Source: Candidatus Bathyarchaeota archaeon
GTDB taxonomy: Archaea > Thermoproteota > Bathyarchaeia > Bathyarchaeales > Bathycorpusculaceae
DNA length: 64,000 nucleotides
Direction of reading: 5' to 3'
Assembly: GCA_963833575.1 (NCBI GenBank)
Contig: CAWHXY010000004.1
Coordinates: 352,001-416,000 of the forward strand
Shown: positions 6,167-62,822 of the stretch, in pieces
How positions within the stretch are numbered: the first letter of the stretch is position 1
Layout: each line of letters starts with the position of its first letter
Program-made: the position numbers and the translations under genes
Notes under the pieces: model-generated
Told to the model about the DNA's origin: nothing
The model's input: the letters and a program-made list of their open reading frames with translations, nothing else
Databases searched by the model: none

Positions 6167-6314
6167 TGTCTAAAAATGTCAAATCGCGTCAAATTGTGTC
6201 AATTTATGTCAAATTATGTCAAAAAATGTATCAACCTGCGACTAAATCAAGCCTTAAACCAAAAAAGCAACCCAGAACAAACTGGAAAAAATGGCAAAAA
6301 GGTGTTGTTGTTCT
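6167..6314 (+). repeat. Dispersed repeat copy A (TGTCAAATTA-type 10-mer array plus conserved tail)
   Basis: 6-7 units at 10-bp period, then TCAACCTGC...AAATCAAGCCTTAAACCAAAAAAGCAACCC; homologous to 20796-20936 in inverted orientation. Confidence 0.85.
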
Positions 6315-18100: not shown

Positions 18101-18260
18101 GTTTGCGACTGATCTAATCCAAAATAGGCTAAACTAGATTAAAAAAGCTTAAACTAGATTAAACTAGATCAAACTAGATTAAACTAGATCAAAACGCACT
18201 CAACCTGAAAAAAATTCAAGTCTTAAACCAAAGAAGCAACCCAAATCAAGCTGCAAAAAA
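18101..18260 (+). repeat. Dispersed repeat copy B (AAACTAGATT array plus tail)
   Basis: GTTTGCGACT, about 7 10-mers, then CTCAACCTG...TTCAAGTCTTAAACCAAAGAAGCAACCC. Confidence 0.85.
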
Positions 18261-18331
18261 ATTGAAGCACCCTGCACAACGCTTGCTCTTCCCGGCCACA
18301 AATTCGTCAATGGCTCGCTAATCCACATCAT

Positions 18332-18425
18332 GTTTGCGACTAATCTAGCTTAAACTAGCTTGAACTAGCTTAAAAGGGCTTAAATTAGCTTAAACTAGAT
18401 TAAAATGCACTCAACCTGCAAACGA
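18332..18425 (+). repeat. Dispersed repeat copy C (AAACTAGCTT array, truncated tail)
   Basis: 85/89 nt identical (counted by hand) to the reverse complement of 25178-25266. Confidence 0.9.
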
Positions 18426-18523
18426 TACATACCCTAATTTACAAAAACATTGTGAAATAAGCTGTTCAAATTTGCTGTGGATTCCAAATAAGAACAATAT
18501 CGTGGACAGTAAATAGACAAAGC

Positions 18524-20795: not shown

Positions 20796-20936
20796 AGAAC
20801 AACAACACCTGTGGTGCCATTTTTGTTATTTGTGTCTTGGGTTGCTTTTTTGATTTAGGGCTTGAATTGGTTGCAGGTTAATACATTTTTTGACATTATT
20901 TGACACAAATTGACGTTTTTTGAAATTATCAGACAA
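20796..20936 (-). repeat. Dispersed repeat copy E (TGTCAAA array plus tail)
   Basis: Reverse complement aligns with 6167-6314, including the final AGGTGTTGTTGTTCT. Confidence 0.85.
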
Positions 20937-21020: not shown

Positions 21021-23642
21021 TTATGCACGTTTTCTGAGTAAAACCAATCCGACTACGGCTATTGCAATAATTATAACGATTACTCCAACGACGTTGTATA
21101 TCATGAGGTCTGCTGTTGTTGCTAAGTTTGATGGAGCGGTTGTCGTCATTGGTGTTGCTGCCGGAGAGGTGGCTGTGAAAGATGTTTCTGCAGATGTTGG
21201 ATAGTATGATTCTGAGCCTGCGAAGGTAGCGATGACTTTGTAGTCTCCGGTGATGTCGGGTTTCCAGGTGAATGTGAACATGCCGCTAGTGTCGCTTGTG
21301 GTTGTTCCAACGTTTCTTAGGTTACCGTTTGAGTCAACGACGTCAATTGAGATAGGAACACCGGTTGCGTTTGATGGGGGGGTTTGCTGCATGTAAACGT
21401 ATTCCATCCATGCTGACATGCTTGAATCTGAAACTACTGGAAGGCCATTAGGGAAGTTCTTTGCTACTGCTTGCTGCTGTGCGCCTGCAGAGATATCAGT
21501 TATTGTGCCTCTGATTACTACTGGTGCGCCTGTGGTTGTAACTGTATCAGGTGCGGTAACAGTCATAGCGGTAGGTCCTTGTCCATAGGAGTATAGCTGG
21601 TTGTCATAGGCGTTGAGTACGGTCATTATGCCATCAACTATAGTTGCGCCGTTAGTGACGTCGAAGCCGTTTATGCTCCAGATGAGTTTTCCGTTAGTGC
21701 AGTTAATTGCTAGTTGCTGTGCTCCCCTAAACAACGGCGGGCTGTATTCGTGACCCTCGTTGAGGAACCACACGCCATCTGCAACTGATCCTCCGCTGAA
21801 GACCCAGAGCGGCCAAACACCATATGGAGTATCAGAGCCAGCGAGACCAGTTACTGCGTTAGTGCTTGTGTACCACAAGATGTTTCCGTTCAATATGTTA
21901 ACTGCCCACATGTCTCCACCGAAACCCATTATGTACATTACGCCATTTGCCAGAATAGTTTGGTAACCGCCGATGCTGTCGTATGGGTTTGGAACATCGA
22001 AGATTCCATTGCTGCCTGAAAGCTGTACCGGACCCCATGATAGAACACCTGTATTCATATTATATCCAGTTAGTACTCCTGTGGCTGATTGCAGCTCAAC
22101 AAATATTCCGTATCCTGCAGTCGTAACGCTTACTCTTGTATATGGTGTTAGAGTTCTGTTAGTAACCCATAGCTGTGCTCCAGTGTTGGCATCAAAACCT
22201 GCTTCTATTTGGTAGCCAGTGTTGAAGTATGTTGCGTTTCCTGCAGTGAGCAGAACTACTCCGCTGTTGACAGTGCTTATCGATAGAGGCGCGGGGAACG
22301 GAATGTTTGAGATGTTGGTTGGTAGTTGGTTTGTCCAAACTGTGCCGCGACCAAAGTCAATGAGGCTGCCTAACGCTGGTCTTAGCATCCAGTTCGCGAC
22401 TGTAACACCGGGTGTATATTGGCTGGTAGGATAAAGAATGGCTTGAGTAGAGTTCCACATGTTAAGGGTTGGCTTGCTAGGAACTGTAGTGTTTACGAAG
22501 TAGCCGATCAAGTCTCCGTTTGAGTCTTCTGTTAGGGACATGGAGGTGCCGTTTGCGATGCTTAGAATGTAGTTGCCGGTCATTGCATCATAGATGTTGT
22601 AGGTGAGTCCTGTCAATACGGCTGTTGACGATAGCGAAGCTCCGAGTGGGTTACCAGTTGTCCACAAATATGCGGTAGTTCCATATTGGTTGGGTGATAC
22701 ATATTGGAGTAATTGGCCGCATCTTAAGGTCTGTGTGGAATTGTATGTCCATAGGGTTTGTCCTGTGCGTAAGTCTACTGCAATCCATCCTGCGGGATAT
22801 GTGGATGCTCCTGGGTATAGCTCGTAGTACATGACACCGTTCATGATGATTGGTGCCCATTTTGGTTCGTACTGAGAGGTTGAGTAATAGTTGCTTGTGT
22901 CGGTTCCACCGAATTCTCCGCCCACTAAGCCTCCGAACGCTACTGGTTTTGTCCAGAGGATGTGCGCAGCGTTTGGTGCAGTAGTGTATGGGTTGTAGTC
23001 TCCAGTCAGATTATACTTGCCTGTGTTAGCGAAACTGTGTAGACCTAATCCTAGCCAGTTGCCGGTAATGTTGTACCATAAGCCGTTTGTTGATTGTACT
23101 GGTCGTGTCCAATAGTTTGATGGAAGTGGAGTTGTTGGAATTTGTGGTATTGGCTGTTGTTGTACTGAAAGGATTACAGAGGGACTTGTAGAAGCCATGA
23201 ATGTGTCGTTAATGTATTCATTTGTTTTTGCTGCTCCGTTTTCACCTGTCAATACTTGTCCGGGAAAATTCATTACAAACGTGTAGTTGCCGGTTTGACT
23301 TGGCGTATAATCAGTGTGTGTTCCTCCGGTATCGTCAGTGGTAAACGGACCTAGAGTTTCTGTGGTTCCATCCGGATGAGTGACTGTAACAGTCAAGCCA
23401 TGCCATCTGTCTCCTAATGCGCCGTTAGCAGTAGGCGGCGGTATTTGCAACCAAAAGTTAACATTAACTGTCTGACCAATGCCGCAGGGGTTTGGTGCTA
23501 CATTCATGTAAGCGTATGTTATGATATGATATGGTGGCGTATGTGCACTAGTATTCGGAAATAGCATCATTGAAGCGCCCATAGAAATTATTAATAACAT
23601 CGAGATCGTAATAGCTGCTGTTTTATTCTTACCAATTTGCAT
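21021..23642 (-). CDS. PQQ-binding-like beta-propeller surface protein, paralog 1
   Basis: Signal peptide; AHILWT, EHEYSPPL and NAYDNQLY motifs; Ig-like domain, Thr/Pro linker, C-terminal TM plus basic tail. Confidence 0.85.
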   Translation of the reverse strand: MQIGKNKTAAITISMLLIISMGASMMLFPNTSAHTPPYHIITYAYMNVAPNPCGIGQTVNVNFWLQIPPPTANGALGDRWHGLTVTVTHPDGTTETLGPFTTDDTGGTHTDYTPSQTGNYTFVMNFPGQVLTGENGAAKTNEYINDTFMASTSPSVILSVQQQPIPQIPTTPLPSNYWTRPVQSTNGLWYNITGNWLGLGLHSFANTGKYNLTGDYNPYTTAPNAAHILWTKPVAFGGLVGGEFGGTDTSNYYSTSQYEPKWAPIIMNGVMYYELYPGASTYPAGWIAVDLRTGQTLWTYNSTQTLRCGQLLQYVSPNQYGTTAYLWTTGNPLGASLSSTAVLTGLTYNIYDAMTGNYILSIANGTSMSLTEDSNGDLIGYFVNTTVPSKPTLNMWNSTQAILYPTSQYTPGVTVANWMLRPALGSLIDFGRGTVWTNQLPTNISNIPFPAPLSISTVNSGVVLLTAGNATYFNTGYQIEAGFDANTGAQLWVTNRTLTPYTRVSVTTAGYGIFVELQSATGVLTGYNMNTGVLSWGPVQLSGSNGIFDVPNPYDSIGGYQTILANGVMYIMGFGGDMWAVNILNGNILWYTSTNAVTGLAGSDTPYGVWPLWVFSGGSVADGVWFLNEGHEYSPPLFRGAQQLAINCTNGKLIWSINGFDVTNGATIVDGIMTVLNAYDNQLYSYGQGPTAMTVTAPDTVTTTGAPVVIRGTITDISAGAQQQAVAKNFPNGLPVVSDSSMSAWMEYVYMQQTPPSNATGVPISIDVVDSNGNLRNVGTTTSDTSGMFTFTWKPDITGDYKVIATFAGSESYYPTSAETSFTATSPAATPMTTTAPSNLATTADLMIYNVVGVIVIIIAIAVVGLVLLRKRA

Positions 23643-24011
23643 TTTTGTTTTTTCTCCTAAATGTGTTTTTGTGCTGAGAAAAAGTAATGAATACTTTTCC
23701 CAACTCTGGACTTGTTTGTTAATGTTCTTTTAAATAACTTGTGTAATTTTTCTTTCTTGTAACAGTTTAAAAAAAGTTATTTGATGCCAGGTAAATGAGT
23801 TGAATTTGAATTATTCAGAAACATTATCTTCCAAAAAAGTGAGGGAAGACTTGTTACGCAGTCTTATTCGATGTTTTTCATAAATTTTCTGCTATTTGAG
23901 TTGGTTTTTTAGCAAAAACTGCTTTATGCATTAATTCATTTAGTTGTTAGGAGATGAGAATATCATTCGGGGTTGATTTGGAAAAAAATATAAAAGGACT
24001 CCGTGTAATTA

Positions 24012-24956: not shown

Positions 24957-25135
24957 GGTTTTGCTTGAAACTCACCCTGTAAGAGCTTTTCTTTTTTCCT
25001 TTTTTCTTATGCTTTTTTTACTTTGATAACCGTTTGAAGAATAATTATTGGATTAAGGGTTGAATGTTATTAGAAATTGCGGGGTTCCAAGGGTAGCTTA
25101 CTAATTTTTTTGAGGGGAACTGGCGTATTTTTCTT

Positions 25136-25266
25136 ACTGTTTGGTTTTGGTTGCTTTTTTGATTTAGGTCTTAAATTGTTTGCAAGTTGAGTGCATTTTA
25201 ATCTTTTTTAAGCTAATTTAAGCCCTTTTAAGCTAGTTCAAGCTAGTTTAAGCTAGATTAATCGCA
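25136..25266 (-). repeat. Dispersed repeat copy F (AAACTAGCTT array plus tail)
   Basis: Inverted near-copy of 18335-18423, followed by the full tail ACCTAAATCAAAAAAGCAACC. Confidence 0.9.
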
Positions 25267-45215: not shown

Positions 45216-45532
45216 TCTTAATCACCAGAAGAAAAGGCGTTAATACCATATGAAATATATAGTTTCTATAATTTATTTATTTTCCTTTCTCAGATTTAAA
45301 CCCAACAAGAAATTTTGGCAGCTTGAATTTCAATCACACTCATGGTTTTACTGCATATTTGGTGCAACAGAGGCATCAAATCGCACTATGTCAAATTGAG
45401 AAAATTTATTAACACGGTTGCAGTTCAAGTTTGGTTTGACGAAAGTAGCATTTTTGCTTACCCCAATTGGTAAGTTTTGCGCTTTCGTTAAAGAAAACAT
45501 AAAAATCTAAAAGAAAAGGAGAAAAAGAAAAA

Positions 45533-48355
45533 ATGCAAATTAGTAAAAACAAAACACTAGGTATTACGATCGCAATATTGTTAACAATTTCAATGGGAGC
45601 TTCAATGATGCTTATACCCAACGCTATCGCACACACACCATCACAGAGCATTCAACTCTTCGCATTTATCAATGTGGCACCTAACCCTGCAGGCATAGGT
45701 CAAGCTGTAACTGTCAGCTTCTTTCTCAATGAACCACCAATGACAGCAGGCGGTCCATATGGAGACAGATTTGGTCCTTTCACGGTAAATGTTGTAAAGC
45801 CTGATGGAACCAATGAGACACTCGGACCATTTATTTCCGATGACACAGGAGGAACAAGCACTCGCTACACACCCACTCAACTTGGCACATACCAATTCCA
45901 GATGTTTTTCCCAGGAATGAAAATGACTGGATCAACTAACAACCCAGCTTCAGCTGGCGTCAGTCCCAGCAGCGGGCTCATCAGTAATACTGCTTATATT
46001 AATGACACTCTCCTACCGGCAACAAGCTCAGTAGCAACGCTTACAGTGCAACAACAGCCAGTACCATATGTCGCAGGAGCTCCGCTTCCTACATCTTATT
46101 GGCAAACCCCAATAAACGCAATGAACGTTCAGAACTGGTACGCAATTGGCGGTCCTTACCTTGGCCTCTATATTGGTTACAGTGCAGGTAAAGGTGCTTC
46201 CAACTACAATACAACAACAAACTTCAACCCATACTCTTTGGCGCCACAAACATCTCACATCATGTGGACAAGACCAATAGCATTCGGAGGCACAATCGGT
46301 GGAGATGCAGGCGGAACAACAACCTACGGCAACTACTATTCAACCTCTCAGTACGAACGCAAATATGATCCAATAGTCATCAATGGCTACCTCTACTACA
46401 CTCAATTCCCAGGAAGCTCGACTAGCCCAGTAGCTAACGTCGCAGTTGACTTATTCACTGGAAAAACAATATGGACAAACGATGCAAGCAACTATAACGG
46501 TGGCAGTCCAACACAGAACATGCTAACAACGACAGGCGTCGTTACGCCATTTACATGTGGCCAAGTACTCGATTACGTGTCACCTAACCAATACGGAGGA
46601 ATTGCTTATTTATGGACAACAGGGAATCCTGCCTGGATCACTCCAAGTGTTATGAACTTAACTGGAACGACCCTAAACATGTTTGACGCTATGACTGGTA
46701 AATACATCCTCAGCATTGTTAACGGAACAGGTTTCAGCTATGGAAACACGGTAGACGCAAGTGGAGATTTGATATCTTACTACACAAATACCACCGTTGG
46801 AACACAAACAATCTACGGCCAAATTCTGCCGGTTACTGGACCAACACCGACAAAAGTCACTAACACTGCGGGCAACTCACTCCTCGAAGCATGGAACTCA
46901 ACTCAATGTATTATGGAAGGTGCTGGCTGGTCAACTGGATCGGCTTCAGGCTGGCAATGGAGACCCGTACAAGGTTCACTAATTCCATTTTCATATGGAA
47001 TACAATCCGCATGGCAACTACCTGGCACTGTACCAGTTGGTGCATACGCAAATAATGCTACATTGCCAAACACTTGGACAATCATGGGCGTTAACAGCGG
47101 TGTAGCTATTCTTTATTCAGCAGATAACGCAGGACTCACAAACTACTTCCAAAGAGGATCCACAGTCTTTACAGGTTACGACATAAACACGGGAAACCAG
47201 CTATTCGTCCAAAATGAAACCTTCACACCTTACACTGCAGTCAACCTAGACAACTATGGCAACGTCGCCGACGGACTTTTCACCACAGTTATCAAAGAAA
47301 CTGGTCAAGTTACCGCATTCAGTGTCACGACAGGCCAGCAAGCATGGCAAACAACACTTACAGGCGACAATGGCGCACCTATCAATCCATACGATACTAT
47401 CGGCGGAATCAAAGGAAACGTTTACGGCACCAGTTTCCTACTCTTCGGTTTCGGAGGAGACGCCTGGTCTTTAAACATGGCTAATGGCAAACTTAACTGG
47501 TATACAAACACAACTAAACTCATGGGCGACGCTGGCTCTAACACCCCATATGGCGTTTGGCCTATCTGGGTACAAACAGGCATTGGCGGCGGCGGCGGAA
47601 TAGAATGGCTTGAAGTAGGACACGAATATGCACCACCATTGTTCCTTGGAGCACAACTACTGGCATTGAACACTACAACTGGACAACTAGCATGGAGTAT
47701 ACCTTCCTTCGATGTTGATGCAAACCCCGAATTAGCATACGGCATTATGACAACACTAAACGCATATGACAACCAAGTCTACGCTTACGGCCAAGGACCA
47801 AGTGCAACGACTGTTACAGCACCCAGCGTAGGCGTAACAACAGCAACACCAGTAACCATAACAGGCACAGTAATGGACGTATCTGCAGGCGCAAAGCAAG
47901 AAGCAGTAGCAGCGAACTTCCCCAACGGTCTACCAGCAGTTTCTGATGCAAGCATGAGTTCGTTTATGGCATCTGTTTACATGCAACAACCAATTTCTCA
48001 TGACATTACCGGAGTTCCAGTTACACTAAGCGTTGTTGACTCAAACGGCAATTACAGAACCATAGGCAACACTACAACCGACGCTACAGGTTCGTATGGT
48101 CTCAAATGGACACCTGACATATCTGGCTCTTACACTATCGTTGCTACATTCTCAGGATCAGGAGCATACTACGGATCAACAGCTCAAACATACCTATATG
48201 CCAGCGCAGCAACCACACCAGCACCAACAACCGCACCTCAATCAAATCTAGCAACAACAGCAGATCTAATGATATACGTAGTCGCAGCAGCAATCGCCAT
48301 AATCATCGCAATAGCCATAGTTGGCATTGTAATAGTAATGCGGCTCAAAAAATAG
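45533..48355 (+). CDS. PQQ-binding-like beta-propeller surface protein, paralog 2
   Basis: Same architecture and many identical blocks as 21021-23642 (YYSTSQYE, GHEY.PPLF, NAYDNQ). Confidence 0.85.
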   Translation: MQISKNKTLGITIAILLTISMGASMMLIPNAIAHTPSQSIQLFAFINVAPNPAGIGQAVTVSFFLNEPPMTAGGPYGDRFGPFTVNVVKPDGTNETLGPFISDDTGGTSTRYTPTQLGTYQFQMFFPGMKMTGSTNNPASAGVSPSSGLISNTAYINDTLLPATSSVATLTVQQQPVPYVAGAPLPTSYWQTPINAMNVQNWYAIGGPYLGLYIGYSAGKGASNYNTTTNFNPYSLAPQTSHIMWTRPIAFGGTIGGDAGGTTTYGNYYSTSQYERKYDPIVINGYLYYTQFPGSSTSPVANVAVDLFTGKTIWTNDASNYNGGSPTQNMLTTTGVVTPFTCGQVLDYVSPNQYGGIAYLWTTGNPAWITPSVMNLTGTTLNMFDAMTGKYILSIVNGTGFSYGNTVDASGDLISYYTNTTVGTQTIYGQILPVTGPTPTKVTNTAGNSLLEAWNSTQCIMEGAGWSTGSASGWQWRPVQGSLIPFSYGIQSAWQLPGTVPVGAYANNATLPNTWTIMGVNSGVAILYSADNAGLTNYFQRGSTVFTGYDINTGNQLFVQNETFTPYTAVNLDNYGNVADGLFTTVIKETGQVTAFSVTTGQQAWQTTLTGDNGAPINPYDTIGGIKGNVYGTSFLLFGFGGDAWSLNMANGKLNWYTNTTKLMGDAGSNTPYGVWPIWVQTGIGGGGGIEWLEVGHEYAPPLFLGAQLLALNTTTGQLAWSIPSFDVDANPELAYGIMTTLNAYDNQVYAYGQGPSATTVTAPSVGVTTATPVTITGTVMDVSAGAKQEAVAANFPNGLPAVSDASMSSFMASVYMQQPISHDITGVPVTLSVVDSNGNYRTIGNTTTDATGSYGLKWTPDISGSYTIVATFSGSGAYYGSTAQTYLYASAATTPAPTTAPQSNLATTADLMIYVVAAAIAIIIAIAIVGIVIVMRLKK

Positions 48356-48421
48356 CCAAAAGCTTCAAAACAACCAAACCCCTTTCCTTTTTTTAGTTCT
48401 TAAAAAAGAAAATTCAAAATA

Positions 48422-48519
48422 GAGATAAATAGTCTTTGTTTAGATTCACAAGACAGCTGTAATTCGTGATAGAGTTGGCATTTGCTCTTTTTATTGTTCT
48501 CGAAGTCTAAGCAAATCTC
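48422..48519 (+). ncRNA. Hairpin sRNA candidate, divergent member of the anti-RBS family
   Basis: 12-bp stem TTTGTTTAGATT/AGTCTAAGCAAA enclosing TCGTGATAG..TTGGCATTTGCTCTTTTT, shared with the 52483 and 61361 elements. Confidence 0.45.
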
Positions 48520-48604
48520 AATTGGTCAAAAATCTTCTAATATGTCAGTACAAGCGTCTACGTCACGCTTTTATTAGGCTTATGAATAACAATGCGACGC
48601 TATT

Positions 48605-49167: not shown

Positions 49168-49300
49168 TTTTTTGTTGAGCTGGTTTTGGGCTGCTTTTTT
49201 GGTTTGGGGTTTGATTTGTTTGCAGGCTACGTCATTATTTGTCAGGAATCGTCATTAATCGTCGCATTTCGTCACGATCCGTTACTAATCGCCACAATTC
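49168..49300 (-). repeat. Dispersed repeat copy H (TGACGA-type array plus tail)
   Basis: GAC at 10-bp period about 7 times, then GCCTGCAAACAAATCAAACCCCAAACCAAAAAAGCAGCCC. Confidence 0.8.
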
Positions 49301-52458: not shown

Positions 52459-52482
52459 GATGTTAGGTATAGGCAGAAATTA

Positions 52483-52588
52483 AGAGTTTGCTGAGGCTCT
52501 GTCCACTTTAGGAGAAAAGAACGCAAATGCAAATGCGCTATCACGATTGCTAATATCATGATTAAGCCAGAGTCCTATTCAGCCTCTT
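52483..52588 (-). ncRNA. Hairpin sRNA candidate with BHB-like closing stem and anti-SD/anti-AUG loop
   Basis: AAGAG-GCUGA-AUA-GGACUCUG...CAGAGCC-UCAGC-AAA-CUCUU; loop UUUGCAUUUGCGUUCUUUUCUCCUAAA; covaries with the 61361 copy. Confidence 0.65.
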
Positions 52589-52644
52589 CTATTATGTTCT
52601 TTGTTGGGACTAAAAAAAAGGAATAGGGTTTTGATTGTGGTTGC

Positions 52645-55173
52645 TTATGCTCGTTTTCTGAGCATTAGCACCATTACCATGCCGACTATTGCTATCGCAA
52701 TGATAATTGCAACTACTGCTGGGACAAAGTACGTATCGTATGCTGAAGTGTTATTCTGGACTATTGGTTGAGATGTTGCTGCTGGTGCATTTTCTACGTT
52801 TATGGCAGTTTCAGCTGTTGATCCATAATATGAATTGGAGCCTTCGAAATTAGTAGAGACTGTGTATTGTCCTGGGACACTTGGAGTGAAAGTAAAGCTG
52901 TAGTAGCCGTTTGCATCGCTTGTTGCTGTACCAACTGTGTAAGTATTGTTGTTGGGGTCGAGAACACTGATTGTAACGGGTACTCCTGTGGCGTTAGTTG
53001 GTCGTGGATACTGCATATAGACATATTGCATCCATTCTGTTTGACTTGCGTCAGAGACAGCGGGTACACCTAGTGGGAACCGCGCAGCGACATCATATGT
53101 TTTGGTGCCTGGGGCTATATCAGTAACATACCCTTGCACCATTACTTTATCGCCGTTTATTGATATTGTCGGATCTGCTTGAACTGTTGTTTCAGTTGCG
53201 CCTTTTCCAAATGCATATATACGGTTGTCGTATCCTGCGTTGAGTCCTGCAATTACTCCGTCACCGATAACTGGCGTTCCGCCCCACCAACTGTCAAACC
53301 AACTGCAGGTGTATATTACCTGACCGCTTGTTGCGTTGAGGCAGGTCATATATGCACCTTTAGCTTGTAGGTTGGGGTGGTGTGTTGCGTAGGACAAGTA
53401 GAGTTTTCCGTCAGTAGCGAACCAGAACACTGTCGGCCAATTGTTGCTCCACAAGACTTGAGCATAGTAGTCTGTACAGTTGTAGGTCCATAATCTTTGG
53501 CCAGTGTGGATATTGTAGGCAATTGTCATTCCGCTCTGGCGTTCGCTGTAGAAGATGCCATATGCGATCATGGGGCCGTACCATTTGTCATAGTACGCAA
53601 GGTATGGTTCTTGGTCGGTTTGCCATAAGTAAGCACCCGTGTCTAAACTAAAGCCGTAGAATCTTAGACTTTCTCTGCAAGATATAATGAATACACGATC
53701 AGTGAAGCTCACATCACTCCATACCCAAGTTCCTCCGGTAAAATCTGATGGTACTGTCCAAGTGTTATTGAAGATCAGTTGTCCAGCGGTCCCTACCTTT
53801 GTGCTTATAGCCCATGAAGTAATTGTTGGTCCGGTTGCACCTGGGAATGCGGATGATGTTGATCCAAGTACGCAATCGTCAAATTGAGCATTGCAAACAG
53901 CTCCGGGCAAACCAAGGGGTATCGAAACGTTATAATCATAACCTTGGCTTGCGTCTATTATGCTTCCGATTGGAGTCCAACTGCCATCACCGACTGACCC
54001 CGTAAGCTGTGGGTTGATTGCTCTGCTTGAGTTCCATTCAGTCAACCTACCATTTGTAGTGTCAACGGTGTATCTGTAGATTACGCCATCTGGTCCATAG
54101 TAGTTGTAGTCTGGATTTCCCGCAGGCACGTTTATTAGTTGATATAGCCAGCGTCCAGTAAGAGGGTCATACGCATTCCAAGTATAGGATAATGTTTGCC
54201 CGAATGCACCGGTTACAGGTGTCGAAGTGAATAAGTATGCGAAAGTGCCGTCAAGGTTGAATCCTTTCCAGTGGAAGACTTGGCCAAAGGATAGGCGTGT
54301 GTTGTTCCAGTTCTTTTCCCAAAGTTGTTCTCCAGTTTTAAGGTTTATAGCTACAACTGTTTGTTCAGATATTGGTGCTCCGGTTGAATCATATCTGTTG
54401 AAGTACAATACGCCGTTGATTACTATTGTGTTTAAGAATTTGCCTACGTATGCATCGCCCATCTCCATTCCTCCTCCTTCAGCGGTAATGTTGCCGCCTG
54501 CCAATCCTCCTTCAGCGTATTGATAAGTCCATAGTACGTGAGCGGTTTCAGGTGCACCTTCGTTACCGGGTATGTACTTATCATCTGGGGGCATTGTGTA
54601 ACTTCCTATGGCTCTTAGCCAGTCACCGGTCAATGGAGCCCATTGTTCGAATTGGGCGTTTATTGGACGGTTCCAGTATTCAGTTGGCAGTGGGAAAGCT
54701 GGAAAATAAGCTATTGGGTTTTGCTGTACTACTAGGTAAGTTATTGGACTGTCACTGGCGGCGTATGGTATGGAGCCAACTCCTACGAAGGGAATTGCCA
54801 TGTTTTGTGCTGGGAAGTGGGTTTGGAATTTGTATGTGCCGACCATTGTTGGAACATAAATTGAGCCTGTCCCCCCTGTTGCGTCAGTACTAAATGGGCC
54901 TAGGGTTTCAGTGGTGTTGTCAGGTTTTGTTACTGTTACAGTCAATCCTGTCCATTTAAAATAGGTTCCAGCTGTGGGTTCTGATATTCCGATGTGGAGA
55001 AGGACTTCTTGGCCAACGCCGACTGGATTTGGGGTAGTTCCGAGAAACGCATATGTTTTTTTAGGAGTTGCTGTTGTTGTCTGCGCATTGCTTGTTGGAT
55101 ATGCTGCAATTAGAGAAACTGCAAATGCAAGTATAATAAATACTGCTGCGATTTGATTTATGCTTGTTTTCAT
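52645..55173 (-). CDS. PQQ-binding-like beta-propeller surface protein, paralog 3 (more divergent)
   Basis: PNPVGVGQ, AHVLWT, YDNRIYAFGKG and PAVSDAS motifs; C-terminal TM plus RKRA. Confidence 0.85.
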   Translation of the reverse strand: MKTSINQIAAVFIILAFAVSLIAAYPTSNAQTTTATPKKTYAFLGTTPNPVGVGQEVLLHIGISEPTAGTYFKWTGLTVTVTKPDNTTETLGPFSTDATGGTGSIYVPTMVGTYKFQTHFPAQNMAIPFVGVGSIPYAASDSPITYLVVQQNPIAYFPAFPLPTEYWNRPINAQFEQWAPLTGDWLRAIGSYTMPPDDKYIPGNEGAPETAHVLWTYQYAEGGLAGGNITAEGGGMEMGDAYVGKFLNTIVINGVLYFNRYDSTGAPISEQTVVAINLKTGEQLWEKNWNNTRLSFGQVFHWKGFNLDGTFAYLFTSTPVTGAFGQTLSYTWNAYDPLTGRWLYQLINVPAGNPDYNYYGPDGVIYRYTVDTTNGRLTEWNSSRAINPQLTGSVGDGSWTPIGSIIDASQGYDYNVSIPLGLPGAVCNAQFDDCVLGSTSSAFPGATGPTITSWAISTKVGTAGQLIFNNTWTVPSDFTGGTWVWSDVSFTDRVFIISCRESLRFYGFSLDTGAYLWQTDQEPYLAYYDKWYGPMIAYGIFYSERQSGMTIAYNIHTGQRLWTYNCTDYYAQVLWSNNWPTVFWFATDGKLYLSYATHHPNLQAKGAYMTCLNATSGQVIYTCSWFDSWWGGTPVIGDGVIAGLNAGYDNRIYAFGKGATETTVQADPTISINGDKVMVQGYVTDIAPGTKTYDVAARFPLGVPAVSDASQTEWMQYVYMQYPRPTNATGVPVTISVLDPNNNTYTVGTATSDANGYYSFTFTPSVPGQYTVSTNFEGSNSYYGSTAETAINVENAPAATSQPIVQNNTSAYDTYFVPAVVAIIIAIAIVGMVMVLMLRKRA

Positions 55174-61093: not shown

Positions 61094-61360
61094 AAACCAA
61101 ATGTGGATAATTAAATAATTACAAGAGCATCTTGTTAAATTACCCCTATGTTTCGCTGAAAAACACTTCTGTTTTTTTCAATAATAGCAAATTAATCACT
61201 TTACTTAAAGTCACTAAGAACCACGAACGTGTATGAGCCTACAGCCAAAGTTATTAATTTCAAAACGGTTTGCTGGACGCTTGATTAAATTGTCTTGCTG
61301 CAAAAACTATAGAACAGCTTCAGTCCAAAACGTTTTTTTTAGCTGCGAAAAATGTCGAGA

Positions 61361-61475
61361 AGTAGGGTTTGCTGAGGCTCTGGGAGTTTTCTTTTAGGAG
61401 AAAAAGAAAAATGCAAATACCATCACGATTGCTATTGTACTTCGTGAATTTAACCAGAGCCTACTCAGCCCCACT
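61361..61475 (-). ncRNA. Hairpin sRNA candidate with BHB-like closing stem and anti-SD/anti-AUG loop
   Basis: GGG-GCUGA-GUA-GGCUCUGG...CCAGAGCC-UCAGC-AAA-CCC; loop AUUUGCAUUUUUCUUUUUCUCCUAAA is complementary to 45517-45540 and 23635-23661. Confidence 0.7.
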
Positions 61476-61638
61476 GTTTTTGATTGGTTAACTCTTATTG
61501 GCACATTCTCTTAAGAATATGTAATCAGTGCCACTTCTGACAGGAATTGGTAGCAATTTGAGACTAAATTTGACTGAATGTGGAAAAAAGTTGATAAGTC
61601 CCTGCAAAAATTCTCATTTGCTTTGAGGGAGAATAGCA

Positions 61639-62485
61639 ATGCTTCAAAGTGACGAAGCAACCGGAACACTAATGGATTTAGGACTTACGTATTTGCAAGC
61701 GAAAACGTACTTAAGTCTAACTAAGTTTGAAAAAGCGGAAGCCAATAAAATTGCGAAAATTTCGGATATTGCTCGACAAGACAGCTATAGAATAATGGCA
61801 ACACTTGAAAACCTAGGTCTTGTAGAAAAAATAATAGCAAAACCGATTTCATACAAAGCTACGCCTCTGAAAGAAGGCTCCTTAATGTTGCTACAAAAGA
61901 AAACTAAGGAGCACAGGATATTACAAAAGAAAACAAAATCACTTTTAGATGGTGACCAGAAAAGAAATCTTCTAATCGCTCATGAAGAAAACACACAATT
62001 CACAATTACTTCTGAAAGGAAACTTTTTGTGAAAAGGCTAGAAAAATCATTTGAAGAAGCTAAAACCTGTGAGAAGGTTTTTTCCAGCGGCAGGTTTACA
62101 TTTCACTTTGTTTCATTTTTTCCAAATTCTCAAATTGGCATTGAGGAAGGGTGCAAAAATTCGAATAATTACTGAAGCCACAGAATTCACCTCAATAAGC
62201 AAAAAAATAGAAATATTAGAGAAAAATCCTTTTTTCAAAATCAAATTTGCTTCTTCACCCATTAATTTTGGAATAATACTTTTTGATAACAAACAAGTGA
62301 ATATGTGCATTTCTAATAGTAGCCATGCAGAGGTTCCGAGTTTAGGCACCAATAATCAACAATGTGTAGAGGCAGCCAAAATGATGTTTGAAGTTATGTG
62401 GAATAATGATCAAGAAAGAAATATTAGAAATCTGGAAACTCTGCCTCAAATTGAGGAATTACATGAGAGAACTATTCAGCGCTAG
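61639..62485 (+). pseudogene. TrmB-family transcriptional regulator, split by a frameshift
   Basis: LGLT..QAKTY...IARQDSYRIM..L...GLVEK HTH; the C-terminal domain continues in another frame from a T6 run near 62078. Confidence 0.75.
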
Positions 62486-62615
62486 TGGCAATAAAAAGCA
62501 AAGCTCCTAAGGATTCACTGGTATTTCTACTCAAGCCCTTTTGTTGTAGCATTGTGTGACAACTTCACTTTATCCCTTAACTTGTATCGTGTAATTTGAT
62601 TAAGAAGTGTACTTT

Positions 62616-62822
62616 ATGGGTACTTGCCCTAATTGTGGAAAAGAAAATTCCAAGCCAAAGAAAACCATAGAGAACAGTCTATTTCATTTAACGTATTACA
62701 TTTGCGATAATTGCGGAAATCTTTTACAATATCCTCTTGAGGGCATAATTACAGTGGGTCACCGGTTTAAACATGGGTCACATAGGATAACGATTCTTCC
62801 GTTTTTTCAAGAGGTTTTTTAG
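62616..62822 (+). CDS. Zinc-ribbon microprotein (MGTCPNCGKENSKPKK...CDNCG)
   Basis: Paralog of 35926-36066; the extended tail may reflect loss of the stop codon. Confidence 0.55.
   Translation: MGTCPNCGKENSKPKKTIENSLFHLTYYICDNCGNLLQYPLEGIITVGHRFKHGSHRITILPFFQEVF

Follow-up and report, generated by a model that had tools for sequence, protein, structure and literature searches.

Positions 61361-61475 of the window (the whole 64,000-nucleotide stretch of DNA analysed here) hold a copy of a surface-protein gene start, placed within a hairpin between a phosphodiesterase gene and a TrmB-type regulator gene (61639-62175). The question raised by this locus is what such a hairpin does and from which strand it would act. 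A preliminary description had proposed a trans-encoded RNA, read from the minus strand, that silences a subset of PQQ-propeller surface-protein paralogs in the manner of MicF and MicC; the sequence strings quoted in it were all found at their positions when the sequence was re-read. On the plus strand, 61393-61418 consists of a purine-rich SD, an A-rich spacer, an ATG and five further bases. The element is composed of the following parts.

61365-61473, minus strand: whole element in this orphan copy, from outer helix h to outer helix h
61454-61473, minus strand: 5' half of the bulge-helix-bulge stem, read from the sequence, with h GGG(G) at 61470-61473, H GCUG at 61466-61469, bulge AGU at 61463-61465 and h' at 61454-61462
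61365-61383, minus strand: 3' half of the stem, read from the sequence, with h' at 61375-61383, H CAGC at 61371-61374, bulge AAA at 61368-61370 and h CCC at 61365-61367
61371-61383 / 61454-61469, plus-strand coordinates: outer stem
61423-61447, minus strand: inner hairpin P2, with arms TCACGA / TCGTGA at 61423-61428 / 61442-61447
61393-61418, minus strand: centre, antisense by sequence match to the family SD, spacer, ATG and next five bases
61369-61463, minus strand: RNA of 95 nt predicted to be excised, with the cuts placed after the second base of each bulge

No Rfam family matches at gathering score anywhere in the 64-kb window, and the interval 61300-61560 gave only two chance-level Rfam matches (E = 5 and 7). 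No tRNA gene was found in the window, and a search of a plasmid collection returned no match.

Copies, genomic context and spread

The window belongs to a genome of 2.75 Mb (8 contigs, 41% G+C), in which iterated nhmmer searches recovered 29 copies of the element; 61361-61475 is one of these, and 27 are full length. Full-length copies of this hairpin of about 110 bases measure 105-135 nt and end sharply with GGGTTTGCTGAGG... at one side and ...CTCAGCCCC at the opposite side. A covariance model places the orphan copy at 61359-61487 on the minus strand. Nine full-length copies and two fragments are orphans, and three half-copies are present, none of which is fused to family genes.

Eighteen of the 29 copies follow an ORF of 825-1074 aa on the same strand, at a distance of 55-68 nt from its stop codon. 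In all 18 the SD-sense strand is antisense to the ORF, so that the minus-strand RNA of the element is the gene strand. Seventeen of the 18 ORFs belong to a PQQ/Ig family with 30 members (blastp among about 2500 ORFs, with starts and ORFs taken from our own crude ORF caller), and 17 of the 30 members carry the element. The term trans-encoded, used in the preliminary description, therefore does not suit most of the family, which resides mainly in the 3' flank of the paralogs. The remaining element-bearing ORF (918 aa, C4:206598-209354) is not placed in the PQQ/Ig family by blastp, and may be a different surface protein with an acquired module. The family genes and element copies of the window are listed below; PQQ_2 and Ig-like domains were detected in both of the family proteins scanned.

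45533-48355, plus strand: paralog 2, 940 aa, PQQ_2 and Ig-like domains, start region 45517-45540
48379-48399, plus strand: C-rich stretch and T7 run after paralog 2, likely terminator of the family
48406-48524, plus strand: third copy, degenerate, 61 nt beyond the paralog 2 stop (nhmmer and covariance model)
52478-52601, minus strand: second copy, 55 nt beyond the stop of the 842-aa paralog (nhmmer and covariance model)
52608-52621, minus strand: the same C-rich/T-run motif after the 842-aa paralog
52645-55173, minus strand: 842-aa paralog, PQQ_2 and Ig-like domains, with the second copy in its 3' flank
21021-23642, minus strand: paralog 1, 873 aa, start region 23635-23661

The third copy has lost its anti-SD and its stem is weakened. 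The 3' flank of paralog 1 is free of the hairpin element.

The linked copies share a common flank. Past the stop, the gene strand shows about 25 A-rich bases, a C-rich stretch with a T6-T8 run, 22-31 further bases and then the element; the C-rich stretch and the T-run occur in 18 of 18 linked copies. Because element-less paralogs also have the T-run past their stop (by eye), it is the gene's likely terminator. The terminator region of the family comprises an A-rich tract, TTTCC(C) and the T6-T8 run, often followed by AGTC, and the motif recurs across genera in element-bearing genes. A run of at least five T's is located within 65 nt upstream in 68 of 77 copies, and the orphan at 61361-61475 is without the usual upstream spacer. 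In many species a conserved CAATGGAGAA-like motif is present on the gene strand 20-10 nt upstream of the element, often within these 22-31 bases of the linked copies; it resembles an SD and could pair with the element's own anti-SD, and inspection by eye detected no covariation between them.

Signals for separate transcription were sought on both sides of the element. TATA-like hexamers are enriched 40-50 nt before the genes of this genome and are not enriched before the element (15 of 77 copies, compared with 12.5 ± 3.2 in shuffles); several copies have a CTTAAA-type box upstream. On the gene strand no T-run is located downstream of the element, and T5-T6 runs occur inside it. The missing promoter enrichment and the missing T-run after the element leave no sign of an independent transcription unit, and the likeness to a free-standing gene of the MicF/MicC type was thus not upheld.

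The orphan locus is rearranged in both of the closest relatives found (loci L133 and L134). In one of them, an element-less family gene occupies the syntenic site of the orphan, and in the other about 1.6 kb holding the element and the TrmB-type regulator gene is absent. Judged by this comparison, the interval 61100-62750 is a hot spot for rearrangement. Inspection of the sequence past the stops of element-less paralogs revealed no precise 'empty site'. A function as translational insulator for a downstream paralog was rejected, as few copies have a family gene downstream. Integron attC sites possess R''/R' core sites and form arrays of diverse cassettes beside an integrase. This assignment was rejected as well: the ends of the element misfit the core consensus (compared by eye), and the linked genes are dispersed paralogs of one family.

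The search of relatives with a covariance model, suggested in the preliminary description, was performed with a model built from 25 copies and recovered the element in 29 of 60 related genomes; up to 22 copies occur per genome. Relatives of this genome include Bathyarchaeota/Bathyarchaeia MAGs of bog, fen and soil. The positive genomes include 27 of 36 from the same genus and both genomes of genus g16, which belongs to another family. Of 150 genomes drawn evenly from the order, 35 were positive, with 18 of 35 in family f1, 16 of 35 in f7, 1 of 25 in f6 and 0 of 34 in f11. Hits of the model number more than 400, with hundreds of copies spread over two families of the order. The position behind the gene is also observed elsewhere. 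Orthologue loci in other genomes contain a copy in 18 of 38 cases, 12 of them 52-94 nt past the stop, and of 29 best-hit loci from other genomes, 22 have the end of a same-strand family gene 45-96 nt ahead of the element.

Stem covariation and the bulge-helix-bulge at the stem base

The stems covary in homologs, a point on which the preliminary description had made its proposal depend. Among 43 copies from other genomes, compensatory changes were observed in 15 of 21 pairs, and 93.4% of cells are paired compared with 88.1% in shuffles, none of 500 shuffles being as high. A further 31 copies, of greater divergence and drawn from five genomes, have compensatory changes in 14 of 21 pairs, and 73 doubly changed cells were counted where 21 are expected (0 of 500 shuffles). 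All of these figures are generous, because the alignments had been fitted to the model and the sequences share ancestry. The inner hairpin P2 has compensatory changes in 4 of 5 pairs in the relatives and in 5 of 5 in the divergent set, and the inner helix of the outer stem (8-9 bp) has them in 7 of 8 pairs.

The claim that the element is not a peptide gene also holds. In 68 copies the frames after the ATG divide 17/17/15, with 2 not placed and 17 without ATG(C/A)A, and the frame lengths range from 3 to more than 27 codons. With neither frame nor length conserved, a small peptide on the SD-sense strand was ruled out, and the 29 copies, with their covarying stems, make up a family of structured elements that do not code for protein. 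Inspection by eye showed a possible ATG near the gene-strand 5' edge in part of the copies only.

Which strand forms the functional RNA is less evident from folding. The minus-strand fold of the orphan copy reaches -38.6 kcal/mol (z = -4.7) and the fold of the SD-sense strand -41 kcal/mol (z = -3.7), both far better than shuffles. Wobble pairs had been cited in favour of the minus strand. Overall the counts lean that way, with 18 G.U versus 9 A.C in the genome itself and 35 versus 22 over the whole structure in the relatives, but the argument is weak: in the relatives the inner helix favours the gene strand 18 to 3, whereas the outer helices favour the opposite strand (3 versus 11), and both strands fold. 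The strand is better argued from the bulge-helix-bulge geometry than from wobble pairs.

The gene-strand stem is composed of an outer GGG/CCC helix, a central GCUG/CAGC helix of 4 bp, two 3-nt bulges and an inner helix of 9 bp. One bulge, AGN, lies 3' of GCUG and the other, AAA, lies 3' of CAGC. The stem was compared with the hBHBh' motif of the archaeal splicing endonuclease, as defined in PMC7714728, and a canonical bulge-helix-bulge was observed in 23 of 25 own copies and in 37 of 43 copies from relatives. The 4-bp central helix is fully paired in 23 of 25 own copies and 41 of 43 from relatives; both bulges have 3 nt in 25 of 25 and 42 of 43, the AAA bulge being retained in 25 of 25 and 38 of 43; and the outer helix, for which at least 2 bp are called for, forms 2-3 GGG/CCC pairs in 25 of 25 and 41 of 43. 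A cruder, ungapped geometry test was passed by 68 of 94 copies, several of the failures being mis-anchored matches. The pair that sets the 4-bp register covaries (A-U 57, G-C 11, G.U 9, A.C 4, other 4), and were the central helix 5 bp long, the same position would be without a partner in 5 of the 43 copies from relatives and 9 of the 31 divergent ones. In the orphan copy, four G's permit a slipped register of similar energy with a central helix of 5 bp or 3 bp.

Handedness and cut sites were parsed by hand from an intron-containing tRNA-Ser of the same genome. In this tRNA-Ser intron the bulges are located 3' of the central-helix strands, and each is cut behind its second base. Only the gene strand of the element shows the same handedness, the other strand being wrong-handed. 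The genome encodes a two-subunit splicing endonuclease and an RtcB ligase: two tRNA_int_endo (EndA) ORFs and one RtcB ORF score above the Pfam cut-offs. Intron-containing tRNAs are present in it. Sequence does not vary in the central helix, the bulges or the outer helix. Such invariance is no requirement of the endonuclease, which indicates that some further constraint acts there; we count this point against our preferred reading. A K-turn was ruled out, since no tandem G.A pairs adjoin the bulges (by eye). The acceptor stem of one intron-containing tRNA (C6, 271005-271154), GCUGAGG/CCUCAGC followed by A, resembles the stem base of the element. Kinship with it was judged a coincidence because the 7 bp are broken by a bulge on either strand.

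The antisense centre and its predicted targets

The centre at 61393-61418 matches the paralog 2 start region (45517-45540) with one gap, and it matches the reverse complement of 23635-23661, the start region of the minus-strand gene paralog 1; the antisense relation to PQQ-propeller starts first reported for these two paralogs is therefore confirmed. In the minus-strand fold of many copies, the anti-ATG is predicted to be single-stranded and the anti-SD to lie in a small hairpin loop. Among 68 copies the anti-ATG context is kept in 54 and CTCC in 53, primarily at a mutual spacing of 9-11 nt. This spacing agrees with that from GGAG to ATG, which is 8-13 nt in the family and peaks at 8-11 nt in the genome.

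Targets were ranked by scanning the 25-nt centre against windows -22 to +9 of every candidate start within the first 30 codons of 2514 ORFs. When the centre came from the copy at 61361-61475, members of the 30-gene family filled 7 of the first 10 places, 14 of the first 25 and 18 of the first 50 (Mann-Whitney p = 4e-14, a value that overstates significance, as do the other p-values, because paralogs and related genomes are non-independent). With three other copies, 3-5 of the top 10 are family genes. Several unrelated purine-rich starts rank high too because the centre is pyrimidine-rich. The PQQ starts thus stand ahead of generic SD regions, and the subset favoured within the family is that of the 'MQ' genes, which include both named paralogs; on these two points the preliminary description proved right.

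The predicted pairing is directed away from the host gene. The start of the own host gene has a mean rank of 18.3 among the 30 paralogs, where chance gives 15.5, and pairing in cis with the host's own start (a 5'-3' contact within one mRNA) was ruled out on this basis. Paralog 2 is the best match of 7 of 17 copies, and paralog 1 is third among the predicted targets. Element-less paralogs are the better targets (-19.8 versus -14.9 kcal/mol, p = 0.0015, a difference inflated by two linked genes with doubtful starts). The top seven targets comprise six element-less ATGCAA genes and paralog 2, whose own element is degenerate.

The centre also differs between genera together with its putative targets. 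In genus g16 the family start is GAAGGTGAAAAAATGAAAAAAC, and the reverse complement of several g16 elements contains the same 22 bases. Within a genus, duplexes average -17.0 and -15.7 in energy; across genera the averages are -10.0 and -10.6. In these comparisons the centre is seen to track lineage-specific changes of the family start region. A decaying inverted duplicate was rejected, as it does not fit an element centre and a start region that change together between genera. In g16 copies (L124-L131, genome G052), a sense-like AAAAAUGAAAAA stretch replaces the inner hairpin; its ability to pair with the copy's own anti-AUG suggests a self-masked form of the antisense.

Proposed action, its alternatives and its setting

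The sequence evidence points to an element that is probably a gene-linked antisense module released by an endonuclease rather than a stand-alone sRNA gene. In the reading that we prefer, and to which we give about even chances, RNA from read-through transcription is cleaved within the bulges and may be circularised, and it masks the starts of a subset of the paralogs. A fraction of transcripts would pass the T-run terminator, and the read-through RNA would fold into the bulge-helix-bulge. The splicing endonuclease would cut both bulges and free an RNA of ~95-105 nt, with possible circularisation by RtcB. The exposed anti-SD/anti-AUG would then pair with a subset of family mRNA starts and block ribosome binding, such that expression of an element-bearing paralog would lower the translation of 'MQ' paralogs. 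Orphans such as 61361-61475 would act likewise if transcribed. This mechanism explains why promoter and terminator are missing and why the element keeps its position past the gene, and it covers the strand, the geometry and the co-variation as well. Counted against it are the strong upstream T-run terminator, the lack of a promoter, the missing T-run after the element with T5-T6 runs inside it, the weak wobble counts, the folding of both strands, the slipped register and the high-ranking non-family targets. A bolder form, which we hold only tentatively and consider doubtful, is that these endonuclease-carved and probably circular RNAs silence the other paralogs and thereby impose a hierarchy, or a near-exclusive choice, among ~30 surface proteins.

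It is unlikely, in our view, that the element is a structured tail or a back-up terminator and insulator of surface-protein genes, which would stabilise the mRNA or stop read-through, use its T-rich centre for termination and have no antisense role. Such a tail would fit the location directly past the primary T-run, the T4-T6 runs in the centre, the T-runs that often follow the stem on the opposite strand, and the failure to find a promoter belonging to the element. T-richness, however, leaves unexplained a conserved anti-ATG and anti-SD at genome-typical spacing, the 22-nt identity with the g16 family start and the family-specific ranking, and 13 of the 30 family genes keep the T-run without the element. 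An action at the DNA level, in which the inverted 5'-end copy serves recombination (on/off gene inversion or gene conversion between paralogs) that keeps the sequences alike, is improbable. Compensatory changes in two hairpin stems within 110 nt indicate a folded single strand, an element fits its own gene start no more closely than the starts of the other paralogs, inverted 'off' arrangements of a gene were not encountered and the half-copies are unfused to family genes; these points outweigh for us the inverted SD-ATG copy itself, the likeness that reaches into signal-peptide codons in some copies, the frequent variation of large surface-protein sets by recombination and the rearranged orphan locus.

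The chance that the SD-sense strand is the functional one, as a decoy for ribosomes, a translational repressor or another antisense RNA, or as the source of a tiny peptide, is similarly slight. This strand folds as well as the other, T-runs often follow its stem and the outer-helix wobble favours it 11 to 3, yet it has no conserved reading frame, its upstream flank varies between copies, its bulge-helix-bulge is wrong-handed and the inner-helix wobble is against it. Very improbable, finally, is a selfish, MITE-like miniature inverted-repeat element with a captured gene start. Across two families of the order the element keeps the same position, distance and orientation to one gene family, and its centre co-varies with host-gene starts. 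MITEs insert at many unrelated sites and leave target-site duplications; no such duplication is visible at 61361-61475, the sole copy inspected. The multi-copy state with terminal inverted repeats, the 9 full-length orphans and 2 fragments, and the orphan that lacks its upstream spacer are the features that such an element would share.

The gene-linked antisense reading has partial parallels among known RNAs. In bacteria, the sRNAs MicF and MicC use an exposed stretch to pair with the RBS/start region of their targets. Pairing of this kind is predicted here, as it is described for sRNA162 of Methanosarcina mazei (PMC3510493), and the sequence provides what RBS masking calls for: an accessible complementary stretch, a top 10 held mainly by the family, and co-variation between genera. 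sRNA162, MicF and MicC are single, independently transcribed genes, whereas the element occurs in 2-27 copies per genome, lies beyond the 3' ends of genes from the very family it is predicted to target, is without a visible promoter and is bounded by a bulge-helix-bulge stem.

A different likeness concerns the 3' location. CpxQ and SroC are bacterial 3'UTR-derived sRNAs. RNAs of this class are encoded on the mRNA strand and co-transcribed with the gene; 18 of the 29 copies of the element lie on the strand of their gene, 55-68 nt past the stop, yet beyond a T6-T8 run that looks like its terminator. Like the bacterial 3'UTR-derived GlnZ (PMC9731577), the element is predicted to be a same-strand regulator at the 3' end that is released by an endonuclease and acts in trans. 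For GlnZ, CpxQ and SroC the cut is made by RNase E, and the RNA ends with the terminator of the mRNA itself; the element is located beyond the terminator, and the enzyme predicted is the tRNA splicing endonuclease.

Archaeal tRNA introns carry C/D box sRNAs, and circular products of tRNA and rRNA processing occur. As with these C/D box sRNAs, the RNA predicted here would be freed by bulge-helix-bulge cuts; unlike them, it has a host that is neither tRNA nor rRNA, and its payload is antisense instead of a methylation guide. To our knowledge, the bulge-helix-bulge/splicing-endonuclease system is so far known from tRNA, rRNA and two mRNAs. PMC7714728 describes two mRNA introns of the bulge-helix-bulge type, one located in the Haloferax volcanii HVO_1309 5' UTR, whose excised piece is found as a circular RNA, and one in the cbf5 mRNA of Crenarchaeota, and it mentions circular RNAs. 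The element resembles these two in bearing a splicing-endonuclease motif in mRNA rather than in tRNA or rRNA. As described there, HVO_1309 and cbf5 each represent one gene; the motif occupies the 5' UTR or the coding region, and the excised piece is not known to have a function. The element, in contrast, lies past the terminator, recurs across the members of a gene family and encloses an antisense payload, its cleavage being predicted. Among titles and abstracts on the bulge-helix-bulge in Bathyarchaeia, no such element was found, nor was one found among the records on the archaeal splicing endonuclease together with antisense, circular or intron sRNAs. The combination appears to be undescribed in the literature searched, a body that lies outside subscription journals and supplements.

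Uncultured and abundant in soils, peat and sediments, the Bathyarchaeia are archaea for which we know of no RNA-based regulation. If correct, the gene-linked antisense reading would describe the first regulatory RNA family in Bathyarchaeia, give the splicing-endonuclease system a new task in the release of trans-acting antisense RNAs, and introduce translation-level cross-talk between paralogs of a large surface-protein family. The hierarchy among surface proteins, if true, would be an RNA-based archaeal counterpart of antigenic-variation control. The element is sharply defined, so the idea is directly testable in peat and soil metatranscriptomes and with recombinant endonuclease.

A second dispersed repeat, unrelated to the hairpin element, was also observed in the window. 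It measures ~100-135 nt, contains GTTGCTTTTTTGATTTAGG and is found at 20796-20930, 25129-25266, 49169-49228, 18335-18449 and 6189-6314; a 135-nt query gave 63 BLAST hits in the genome. One copy is located ~150 nt past the stop of paralog 1, the gene without the hairpin element. Short tandem and inverted repeats of an 11-nt, TAGATTAAAC-like unit adjoin copies of the GTTGCTTTTTTGATTTAGG repeat at 18109-18464 and 25206-25263.
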